Shown: positions 61,183 to 64,000 of the stretch, piece by piece
Numbering within the stretch: position 1 is the stretch's first letter
Layout: every line of letters begins with the position of its first letter
NCBI GenBank assembly: GCA_030770535.1
Contig: JASVEC010000016.1
Location: forward strand, 620,001 to 684,000
Reading direction: 5' to 3'
From: Batkoa obscura
Lineage: Eukaryota
DNA length: 64,000 bases
The notes under the pieces: model-generated
What the model was told of the DNA's origin: nothing
Seen by the model: only the letters and a program-made list of their open reading frames with translations
Databases searched by the model: none
Program-made: the position numbers and the translations under genes

Positions 61183-62829
61183 TTACCATCCACCTATTAA
61201 TTTTACTCCTTGTAAATAATTATTTGCTGATACATCGACACCAGATCTTCTTAATTCTTCTTTGAACACAGCTGAACTACATACTTTAACTCCTGGATAA
61301 GATGCCATAAACCATTCTTTATATTTATCATAAACAACATTGGCAGATATAAACCCTTCTTTATCTTCTTCTAAATTAAATTTCTTAAATTGGGAAATAA
61401 TGTCATTGTTTTCTTTAAATTCTTTAGTATATGATTCAACATCCCCACAATTTCCTAGTCCATGTGCTTTATATTCTTTATATTTCTGAATTAGTATATA
61501 TAAAAAGGGTCCAGCTAAATCTGATAATTTATCCATTAGATGGATGTCCTTCTTATATATGTGTTTGAAATTATCACATTCTTCTTGATCATCAACAAAT
61601 GTAGATACAAACGGTAACACCCTCATTCTACTCCATACTGCTTTATCTATTGTATTCGTGCTAAGTACTCTATTAGCAATCGTTACAAATTTTGATCTGT
61701 TAATTATATTTCTACCCGTTTCAAATAAATTACGGGTATACATCGTATCATTACCTGATAATTCTTTAAGTATTCCCGTGTTTATCTTGGATGATTCGTC
61801 GGGTTCTTGGAAGAATGAAATACGTTTTCCTTCCAATAAAGACATTTCTGGAGTAGCTGATGATGATTGAGCACGTTTGCCAGTTATCATGGATGTGGGT
61901 AGTTTTACACCATAATCACCAAATGTCTTTTCTATGAGATTTACAATGATGGATTTGCCATTGTCTCCAAGGCCAGACCATACAACAAAGATCTTATCTC
62001 TGTTCTTTCCTTCTAAACATAATGAGGTAAATCGGAGAAAGTATTCTCTCACATCTTCATTAGGAAAGATCTTTGCTAAGATGTCATTGATCAATGATAA
62101 ATCTTGTTCGTTATAACATTTGTATTCTATTTTACTTTCTAATGTTATATAATCACCGGGCAATCCATCTCGTAATTCATCCAAAGCTAAATAATAGACA
62201 CCATTACCAAGTTTGATTATATTATCATTAGAATCTATTTTATCGATAAACGATTGATCATACATAATTTCAACACAATCGTTAATGACTTTGTTTCTAA
62301 ATATTTGGTTTTGTAATTCAAACATTATATTGGTTCTGATTTTATTCGGTTGTTCTTGATTAGTATGAATAACAAGATCAGAATGGAACTGTTCCATCAT
62401 TGTCCTACGAAGATGTATATCTCCGCGAGATTTTACCCAATGCTGGTTCTTAAATGTATAGAATATTCGTTTGCAGTAATCTACACATACAAATTTCAAA
62501 CGATATAATTCACAAAGCAATCTGGCAACTGAATATTCATTCAAAATAGTAGCATATGCAGTATATAAGGAAATGGTCTTATTTTTGCATATAGAATAAG
62601 TTGATTTTGAACATCTTTCTAATTTACATTCCAGATTAAACTTTATATCAAAGGATCCAATTTATAATCTTCAATCATATCATTGAAACATTGGTACCAT
62701 ATGGTTTCTATATCTGGTGGCAAGATACCTGAATTTATATCCAAGGGGGTTGTTCCAAATGTATCTAGAGAAAGTTCGGGAGATTCAAGCCTTGATATGG
62801 TAACACTGGAATTTGATTCTCCGTGCAAT
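61183..62829 (-). pseudogene. NCLDV D5-like primase-helicase: intact D5_N and SF3 helicase part (61183-62661), frameshifted upstream part, primase domain absent
   Basis: EYSVARLLCELY..KFVC..FYTFKNQHW; LGNGVY; Walker A WSGLGDNGKS; Walker B QEPD; INTGILKELSGND..YTRNLF; AVWSRMRVLPF.STF. Confidence 0.88.
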
Positions 62830-62945
62830 ATGGGGGAGACCCCCATTGACCCCAGATCTATTAGTAAGGGGGAGGGGGGTGTTTTTGGCATAGTAAGGGG
62901 ACACCCCTTTGACCCCATAACTAATTCTTTTTTCCAAAAAGGTAT
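62830..62945 (+). repeat. Modular repeat R4 with two GC-rich hairpins
   Basis: atggggg-aga-cccccat (62830-62846); aagggg-aca-cccctt (62895-62909); 62908-62926 identical to 58404-58422; ends aaaaaggtat. Confidence 0.9.
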
Positions 62946-64000
62946 TGGATAATAAATTAGTTACCCTGGTTTTAGACATGGTGGCTATTAACACATAGCT
63001 TCCCTCCTTGGTAACTTTATCAATTATATCAATCGTATGTTGTATATCAATTAAAGTACAACAAAAGAATAAAGAAACAATATCTATCGATGCATGAGCC
63101 AAATCAATCTTTTCAATTTTATTATTTATTATATCTACTTTGTGTTCTATACCAGCATTTAATATTCTCGCTTTAAGTTCGGGTATCTTTTGAGCATCTG
63201 GTTCAACACAAATTATTCTAGATAAAATATTACTTTTCCATTTAGATGCATCACCTCCCACTCCTGATCCAACATCCAATAAAATGGCATGGGTAAAGAA
63301 TCGTTTAGTTTTCTCTAATAATGATCTCTTTACGTCATTATGATAACGCCTGAGTAAAGCCAATGGAGGATACCCATTGATAATATTGTTGATGATTGTT
63401 CTTGATTGGATGTTGTCAAGGATGTTGGTTACGGTATTTATACTATTAGGATACATCTTATCTGGTCTAAGTCTATGATAAACAAGGGACCCCTTATTAA
63501 TAGCGAATTCAATGATTAAATTATTAGGTAGATTGGTAGCATCATAAACAAAATAGTTATTAAAATCGACATATTCTAATTTGTGTGGATTATAACTATA
63601 TAGGTTTCCATCTTTATATAATAAATCTATAGTTGGAACTGGTTTCCATTTGAAAGCATTTATACCATGTAATATATTTATGATTAAACCATCGCATTGG
63701 AGATTATTAAGATCTATCATGGACGATATAATCATCTTTTTACTAACAGATTCAGAATAAGTATTAAAAAGTAACATAGGTTTAACTACAAACAAACGTT
63801 CACCGACTAGATCATTCAAGCGATAACAATACATAAACAAACGTTTCCATCTATCTACAATTGTATCATGTAATATATTCTTATCATTTTCTATATACAT
63901 ATCAAACATATAATAAATATGATTGAAGAGTTCTGGATCGAACACATTAATCCTACTGGATTTATCTTTAGATTTATCTCTAAAGGTAATCATTTCTACT
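62946..64000 (-). pseudogene. NCLDV-type mRNA capping enzyme (guanylyltransferase C-terminal part and N7-methyltransferase); open at the window edge, 3' end interrupted by R4
   Basis: CDGLII, FKWKP (motif V), RLRPDKMYPN (motif VI), LRRYHNDVKRSL, LLDVGSGVGGDASKW, CVEPD, VSLFFC; the reading frame runs on through R4 to a stop at 62785. Confidence 0.88.

Follow-up and report, generated by a model that had tools for sequence, protein, structure and literature searches.

The window analysed here comprises 64,000 nucleotides of Batkoa obscura DNA (contig JASVEC010000016.1, positions 620,001 to 684,000). At its right end (61183..64000), two genes of giant-virus type lie on the minus strand, a D5-type superfamily 3 (SF3) helicase as well as a capping enzyme for mRNA. 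All motifs which a preliminary description had quoted for the two genes were found in the sequence, on this strand and in place. For the D5 helicase, these are WSGLGDNGKS (61980-61951), KLPTSMITGK (61905-61876), ATPEM (61857-61843), QEPD (61809-61798), and INTGILKELSGND (61785-61747). For the capping enzyme, they are KWKP (63651-63640), RLRPDKMYPN (63474-63445), LRRYHNDVK (63354-63328), and LLDVGSGVGGDASKW (63282-63238).

The main frame of the D5 gene (61183..62661) comprises D5_N, the SF3 core, and a winged helix, as judged by Pfam, homology, structure model, and trees; it has neither a start codon nor a primase domain. D5_N is matched at E = 3.6e-10 (40.7 bits against a cut-off of 22.4), while DUF5906 (E = 2e-4) and Pox_D5 (E = 0.05) stay below their Pfam cut-offs. 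The top relatives (E = 1e-135 and 2.6e-126, 41-45% identity) are far outside chance, and the structure model of the main frame reached a predicted local distance difference test (pLDDT) value of 93.9.

The open reading frame (ORF) of the capping enzyme (62947..64000) was assigned by Pfam and homology. It contains guanylyltransferase (GTase) motifs III-VI, an OB domain, and the N-terminal part of a guanine-N7 methyltransferase (MTase). GTase and MTase are encoded in one chain. The profile mRNA_cap_C passes its cut-off (E = 7.9e-6, 27 bits against 26.5), the same ORF also matches Methyltransf_11 (E = 1.7e-7), and mRNA_G-N7_MeTrfase remains below cut-off (E = 1.2e-4). GTase motif I (KxDG) is expected beyond 64000, outside the window, as is the triphosphatase part.

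The proposed Nucleocytoviricota-type origin of the genes is supported by the best PDB relative of the D5 protein, African swine fever virus C962R, which was found by sequence (E = 3e-40) and by fold, and by the GTase-MTase fusion. Sequence neighbours, PDB, BFVD, fold, and tree agree on a D5 of the type of nucleocytoplasmic large DNA viruses (NCLDV) rather than of phages. A phage or plasmid P4-type primase-helicase next to a cellular cap methyltransferase would be the alternative. A feature search in the Atlas, which carries no alignment, ranks phage/P4 D5 clusters first (0.98), in several sources the relatives bear the label "P4 family primase-like," and the best PDB sequence matches of the capping ORF are cap methyltransferases (E = 0.002-0.09). 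However, the sequence neighbours of the D5 protein are of NCLDV type, the most distant matches, which are phage-like, lie outside in every tree, the methyltransferase shares its chain with GTase motifs and an OB domain, and the relatives are located among NCLDV polymerase genes. A placement with P4-type primases or cellular cap methyltransferases was not found, and we regard this alternative as barely credible.

Neither of the two viral genes is whole, which had been overlooked in the preliminary description. In the D5 main frame, the first Met appears only at residue 88, although relatives align from about residue 7 of this frame and have 150-330 residues preceding their core. Beyond a frameshift near 62650, the gene continues upstream in another frame (62646..62834, minus strand) and ends at a repeat cluster, designated D below. 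By itself, this upstream piece has no significant homology (tblastn E = 1.8; N-terminal hidden Markov model E = 2.7). It is assigned to D5 because contigs from the runs X5, X7, and X10 differ from the window by a one-base indel near 62650 that restores the frame. The window shares its frameshift with X1, X2, and X3; that of the D5 genes in X5 and X7 is another one, near 61447, and X10 has neither. In X10, D5 is about 98% identical to that of the window, lacks the frameshift, and extends past both breakpoints. All ten gap letters of this comparison are accounted for; with 8 of the 30 substitutions listed, a stop is still possible. Three of the 8 listed among the 30 differences are synonymous (p 0.2-0.36), which is uninformative on selection.

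The capping ORF enters a repeat at 62946, and its match to relatives ends at 62947. The alignment stops at residue 726 of 827 in the enzyme of one relative (L001), leaving the C-terminus about 65-100 residues short (extrapolated to two further relatives, L144 and L145). Contigs of X10 diverge from the window at 62834, with 1249 further nt, and at 62947, with 372 further nt. A deletion or rearrangement at cluster D likely joined the truncated methyltransferase to the 5'-truncated D5. Judged from their sequences, both viral genes would be pseudogenes here, and no working enzyme is expected. In four runs, the contig with the capping enzyme extends 1916 nt past 64000.

The element exceeds the region first reported and begins at about 58334. 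Short inverted modules of a single family are grouped in four clusters, one per gene boundary. Cluster A (58334..58443), likely the left edge of the element, has modules in common with B-D and 32 nt identical to 59742-59773. Cluster B (59713..59815) consists of inverted modules; a simple repeat of the CATATCTTTT type comes next and reaches about 59967. Cluster C (61053..61177), with a 12-nt terminal inverted repeat, is located directly behind the D5 stop. Cluster D (62835..62946), where the contigs of X10 diverge, is the junction of both truncated genes. Module matches in the window fall within the four clusters in 18 of 21 cases; one is inside the ORF at 58505, and two are left of 58300. Two repeat 18-mers have 3 matches each, where 0.13 and 0.04 are expected by chance. 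Folding of cluster B is better than that of all 200 shuffles (z -5.85), and for cluster C (z -2.43), 3 of 200 shuffles were equally good. Clusters A and D fold no better than shuffles.

Matches of an 18-mer from the repeat in viral contigs (54 contigs, one match each, none longer than 26 nt) were rejected as chance. A joint in X10 that skips cluster A (29 letters on its short side) and joints in X14 (22 letters) were too short to use. The repeat unit at 59741-59788 reaches a depth of 25,000-243,000 in X5 (single-copy about 440) and is also high in X2; in X1 and X7, it is near background. A joint in X5 suggests a 42-nt tandem unit, and strain-specific arrays or many more copies of the element are possible.

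Two intronless ORFs on the plus strand are situated between the clusters. The first (58505..59620) encodes a Cys-rich orphan of 371 aa with a hydrophobic N-terminus (hydropathy 2.78), which is predicted to be secreted. It has no Pfam match at E <= 1, and 5 of the 16 listed differences from X10 are synonymous, which is not above neutral. The second (60085..60963) encodes a predicted secreted protein of 292 aa with a weak aerolysin/ETX-MTX2-type lead. In the Atlas, fungal hypothetical clusters score 0.94-0.96 and ETX_MTX2 clusters 0.90, with a recognition value of 1917, below the 2300 mark. Its sole homologue among 1077 candidates is a hypothetical protein of Neoconidiobolus thromboides with 99% identity. 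The organism sequenced would accordingly belong to this species or to one very near it. N. thromboides is an aphid pathogen of the Entomophthorales. Against X10, this ORF has an excess of synonymous changes (6 among 10 listed differences, p 0.009-0.034); its single-sequence fold is poor (pLDDT 32). Both ORFs are candidate cargo of the element, which is the more speculative part of our reading, as the parallel with a 35-kb relative described below is architectural only. Immediately left of cluster A, an ORF of Cyt type (57884-58291, plus strand; Bac_thur_toxin, E = 3.6e-23) lacks a start codon and covers profile positions 84-207 of 230; contigs across it are very deep in X10 and X3.

To place the D5 protein, several trees were calculated. 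With IQ-TREE (52 sequences), it forms a clade of 24 with 23 others (Shimodaira-Hasegawa-like approximate likelihood ratio test 100). FastTree recovers the clade with 22 of 157 cores (support 1.0) and with 24 of 249 cores (0.997). The primase domain AEP was found in none of the 24 members, and the best relatives also have no PriCT-2. Of AEP-bearing sequences, 57 of 114 entered one tree, all entered the 157-core tree, and 22 random ones entered IQ-TREE; P0011 was omitted (core <300 aa), and P0002 entered in the longer form that L001 provides. One clade member's cluster contains Coemansia proteins.

The clade groups with a complete genome of 610,033 bp (G001) and 13 other D5 sequences (38 sequences, 99.9), and in another run, it is sister to G001 at 0.85. 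The D5 of G001 retains the primase domain (895 aa; AEP E = 1.8e-30), and the genome also has a stand-alone primase (E = 3.6e-11). Matches in BFVD are mixed (Gaeavirus, Solivirus, Bodo saltans virus, Heterosigma akashiwo virus, Solumvirus, Pithovirus LCDPAC01; 18-27% identity) and include short D5 proteins of a Solivirus (608 aa) and a cedratvirus (650 aa). In the tree, Pithoviridae and pitho-like viruses are the nearest reference group, and a stand-alone primase is common to them and the relatives of the window. The earlier likening of the D5 to irido-, marseille-, and pithovirus enzymes is supported on the pithovirus side by BFVD, the tree, and published work (PMC7017919). An affinity of the clade to Pimascovirales is likely but loosely supported; the tree is a single-gene tree with one reference-like genome, and the top ten of BFVD combine Pimascovirales with Gaeavirus, Bodo saltans virus, and Heterosigma akashiwo virus. 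The capping enzyme of the window scores best against that of L001 (118 bits, first of 24 capping ORFs); hence, both genes point to one clade. The capping enzyme of two 165-kb viral contigs (L306, L307) is the second-best match (108 bits). In viral contigs, a single-protein scan turned up no relative of the D5.

Four clade members come with genomic context: L001 (with L089 and L308; 30.3 of 40.1 kb seen), L009, L144 (with L305 and L332; 35.9 of 51.7 kb), and L145 (with L304 and L330; 32,732 of 35,106 nt, or 93%). The L001 contig encodes a split RPB1, PolB beside RPB1-C, a primase-like protein, FLAP, D5, DUF2738 (SSB-like), a capping enzyme, DUF5757, MutS7, dUTPase, and a globin. On L009, DUF2738, a primase-like protein, and D5 were found. 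The L144 contig carries ligase, RPB5, SNF2 helicase, a peptidoglycan-binding lysozyme, capping enzyme, PolB, D5, RPB1-C, TFIIS, UDG, FLAP, primase, RPB2, and many small accessory ORFs. The 35-kb contig (L145) has 18 genes and one repeat family, whose 10 clusters separate blocks of genes and also occupy the end of the contig. These repeats flank each of two predicted secreted proteins, which measure 705 and >1100 aa and include one with a B-lectin domain. The largest free gap in the 93% seen is 552 nt.

RPB1 is split in all three long contigs (780 + 373 aa in L001, a 416-aa C part in L144, and a 629-aa N part with a separate C part in L304/L330). A ten-gene core (PolB, D5, SNF2 helicase, cap MTase, RPB2, RPB5, TFIIS, UDG, FLAP, SSB) is present 10/10 on the 51.7-kb contig, where SSB was assigned by resemblance with no Pfam match, and 9/10 on the 35-kb contig, where FLAP was not found in the 93% seen. 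The window itself shows 2/10. PolB of the relatives is of the RNA-primed type (PF00136, E = 1e-82 to 1e-89, and PF03104). For the stand-alone primase-like protein, neither Pfam nor PDB gives a match; its identity comes from hhalign to the AEP of D5 (E = 0.002, probability 13.5%, with DxD, H, and D aligned). In the scanned ORFs of the three long contigs, Pox_VLTF3 had no match, while Pfam finds VLTF3 in G001.

Several features of these contigs concern possible cargo or termini. A phage-type, peptidoglycan-binding lysozyme (L144:2-745, L305:5942-6931) and a repeat-rich lectin-like ORF (L305:7163-8878), possibly antibacterial cargo, sit between SNF2 helicase and capping enzyme. Two ORFs at L332:16347-18701 (476 and 301 aa) have Ser/Thr-rich strands and a beta-pore-forming look by eye, with only a weak B_lectin match in Pfam; the window ORF at 60085 has no similarity to a toxin-like-looking ORF of L332 (E = 0.55). 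At the end of the 35-kb contig (L145:11385-12733), 126-nt tandem units are followed by inverted copies, a possible terminal or origin structure.

The preliminary description had considered an unknown lineage. Such elements have, however, been known since 2014 from moss (PMC4083422) and since 2020 from 14 fungi, among them Conidiobolus coronatus (PMC7017919). The fungal "fundsalphaviruses" are pithovirus-related NCLDV genes in early-branching fungi, C. coronatus being of the same order as the window's host. D5 and a "SAM/AdoMet MTase" are among their six shared genes, as in the window, and they have the RP1n/RP1c split, UDG, RPB5, and SNF2 helicase of the window's relatives (PMC7017919). Fig. 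S2 of that study, as a machine-read layout, places chitin-binding, B-lectin, and zymocin-alpha-like domains beside POL; the chitin-binding domains are within elements of Neocallimastix, and in Zancudomyces a zymocin-alpha-like chitinase is next to POL. Its table, in the accessible part, has no Neoconidiobolus, and two C. coronatus loci list POL and RP1c but neither D5 nor MTase. Primase loss, repeats, and cargo are not described in that part, and the donors are treated as viruses (PMC7017919). The regions in the moss Physcomitrella (Physcomitrium) patens fall inside the fundsalphaviruses (PMC7017919). They share 12 named genes with the relatives of the window, namely D5, DNAP, FLAP, UDG, SSB, mRNA cap MTase, SNF2, RP1n, RP1c, RPB2, RPB5, and TFIIS, and have no capsid protein or packaging ATPase in the text accessible (PMC4083422). 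They are decayed chromosomal copies too, but differ in their plant host and in that no terminal repeats were found. Their donor was left open as a helper-dependent virus or fragments of a larger virus; a mitochondrial plasmid or transposon was judged unlikely (PMC4083422).

We consider it probable that 58334 to 64000 and beyond is a dead, integrated fragment of a compact element of the fundsalphavirus/moss type, with two broken giant-virus-type genes, two predicted secreted-protein genes, and one repeat family between them. From 58334 on, the window repeats the layout of the 35-kb relative in genes, repeats, and secreted proteins. We infer from the comparisons integration into the chromosome, membership in the fundsalphavirus/moss group, and decay strain by strain. 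Hence, NCLDV ancestry as first proposed stands, but a giant virus as donor is doubtful, as the relatives look like elements of 30-50 kb without virion genes.

Several points weigh against this reading. The position of the window inside the clade is unstable (support 51-74). No fundsalphavirus or moss sequence is in the tree; therefore, membership rests on the gene content of the relatives and the Coemansia cluster. The cargo genes of the window have no detectable homology to the relatives' cargo, and its repeats have no sequence in common with those of the 35-kb contig. The capsid profile PF04451 fails even on G001, so a missing capsid match carries little weight. Each of the three long contigs may be a fragment, and those of L001 and L144 share MutS7, dUTPase, or ligase with larger viruses. 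Composition is not distinctive either (GC 0.29-0.34, GC at third codon positions 0.22-0.24), as in host genes. Lastly, no listed contig bridges cluster C. Hence, the link between D5 and the host flank rests on the window assembly, depth, and decay.

An alternative is a fragment of a true large pithovirus-like virus of hundreds of kb with virions. The compact contigs would then be a core-gene cluster, and the secreted genes and repeats would be adjacent host DNA. Solivirus, Solumvirus, and Pithovirus LCDPAC01 D5 proteins rank 3, 6, and 7 in BFVD, and the 610,033-bp G001 with its stand-alone primase groups with the clade. Pithoviruses, with genomes of 610-637 kb, have palindromic intergenic repeats (PMC10664404), whose design the window repeats share, and a capsid protein that is hard to detect (PMC9546926). 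They also share the triphosphatase-GTase-MTase design of the capping enzyme, of which the triphosphatase part would here lie beyond 64000. Furthermore, ORF 60085 is similar to fungal proteins, and the repeat unit is very deep in X5 and X2, as a host repeat could be. However, the D5 of G001 retains its primase domain, and pithoviruses have 600-kb genomes, a D5 with primase domain, and VLTF3, which had no match in the scanned ORFs of the three long contigs. Moss, fungi, and three independent contigs show the same dense set of 12 genes and no virion genes, and the 58 kb of host DNA contain hardly any repeat modules. The longest contig among 18 clade members is 53 kb, which is not a significant test. 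A large-virus fragment is unlikely in our view.

The rest of the window is A + T-rich fungal DNA with genes for tyrosinases, tryptophan synthase, UBR1 ligase, histidine kinase, homoserine dehydrogenase, and a Tyr/Ser-Thr kinase with Sel1 repeat. A fungal host, as first proposed, is supported by these genes left of the element and by the match of ORF 60085 to the N. thromboides protein. The endogenous state agrees with the frameshift, the truncations, and the host genes on the left side, the junction at cluster C being unbridged. In four of four DNA-like runs, the depth of the D5/capping contig is 0.89-0.97 of that of the neighbouring host contig. This ratio is compatible with a single chromosomal copy; the runs come from four studies, one may be the source of the window, and depth is not copy number. 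A contig of X5 (52194-59769) spans host genes, cluster A, and ORF 58505 and reaches into cluster B.

Contamination or mis-joining, in which a free element or DNA of another organism was joined to a fungal scaffold at a repeat, could account for the fact that all D5-bearing contigs begin at cluster C (61109 or 61119). Yet the same contig start and host-like depth occur in all four runs, frameshifts and truncations are present, and the X5 contig links host genes to clusters A and B. We consider mis-joining very unlikely. X7 is nearly uncovered over 58112-61118, and X5 is sparsely covered over 59839-61118. A loss of cargo genes between repeats in these two runs is not supported, as no contig joins across the uncovered parts. 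X13 and X14 cover small shares of the window at depth <10. That X10 and X3 are RNA is no more than a guess; in X10, contigs cover genes but not most spacers, with very uneven depth, and cannot show level or strand.

Zymocin-like killer plasmids, also termed virus-like elements (VLEs), of yeasts, Mucoromycota, and Zoopagomycota are capsid-less cytoplasmic DNA with their own transcription and capping and with secreted cargo (PMC13348850), and the window's donor element likely worked in a similar way. The window might even be a remnant of such a plasmid, as VLEs of Coemansia in the Zoopagomycota have a capping enzyme, helicase, RNA polymerase, and secreted cargo (PMC13348850). VLEs, however, use a protein-primed polymerase, and the accessible text does not name D5 as one of their housekeeping genes (PMC13348850); their origin is separate. 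The window has D5, and its relatives have an RNA-primed-type PolB, primase, FLAP, and UDG. A VLE remnant is thus highly improbable. Mycodnaviridae are likewise Nucleocytoviricota of early-branching fungi but are near Algavirales/Imitervirales, capsid-defined, and mostly in zoosporic hosts; earlier fungal endogenous viral elements were called distant from them (PMC13533422). That source reports the capsid gene in none of 40 non-zoosporic genomes and in one of 2,543 Mycocosm genomes.

If the locus derives from a fundsalphavirus/moss-type element, the donor would have replicated in the cytoplasm with its own PolB, a primase-less D5 helicase, a separate primase, SSB, FLAP, and UDG. It would have transcribed and capped its own mRNA with split RPB1, RPB2, RPB5, TFIIS, and the capping enzyme. 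Likely without a capsid, it may have been maintained like the yeast killer plasmids and have carried secreted proteins between its repeats. One copy would have integrated in the chromosome, a rearrangement at repeat D would have deleted the last part of the capping enzyme, the beginning of D5, and anything in between, and strains would later have acquired different frameshifts. A capsid-less cytoplasmic plasmid as donor is more speculative than the locus assignment itself.

Tentatively, we extend this to a proposal that may well prove wrong, namely that fundsalphaviruses and the moss "virus", rather than being giant viruses, constitute a second, independent family of capsid-less cytoplasmic plasmids of 30-55 kb. 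It would be a reduced pithovirus relative, with the primase split from D5, RPB1 split, and late and virion genes lost, which swaps secreted effector genes between element-specific repeats. An active, intact copy might exist in a culturable Neoconidiobolus relative (X10), and this insect pathogen might have received secreted proteins from it. A literature search, with most subscription journals outside its coverage, found no paper calling fundsalphavirus/moss elements capsid-less plasmids. The locus would be a further fossil of the lineage reported in 2014 and 2020, not a new lineage. The nature of this lineage has been open since 2014, and core genes, element-specific repeats, secreted cargo, and, in the 35-kb relative, no room for virion genes offer a testable answer. 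The nearly identical, unbroken D5 in a related fungal run points to material for seeking an intact element. If the proposal is true, giant-virus ancestry gave rise to killer-plasmid-like replicons twice, and such replicons could bring secreted proteins to insect-pathogenic fungi.

Elsewhere in the window, a second, unrelated dispersed host repeat of about 100 nt resembles miniature inverted-repeat transposable elements and often occurs as inverted pairs beside genes similar to G-protein-coupled receptors (2145-2900, 19061-19400, 22082-22176, 38477-40484, 50037-50473, 52140-52240); its depth is very high in all four runs. An intronless family of seven-transmembrane, cAMP-receptor-like genes is found at 17333-18295, 39027-39356, 40760-41671, 50968-51858, and 52517-53452, and one of them matches Dicty_CAR (E = 2e-4). 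Three paralogues of secreted-type tyrosinases are located within 13 kb (8172-9803, 12773-14119, 19722-20939).

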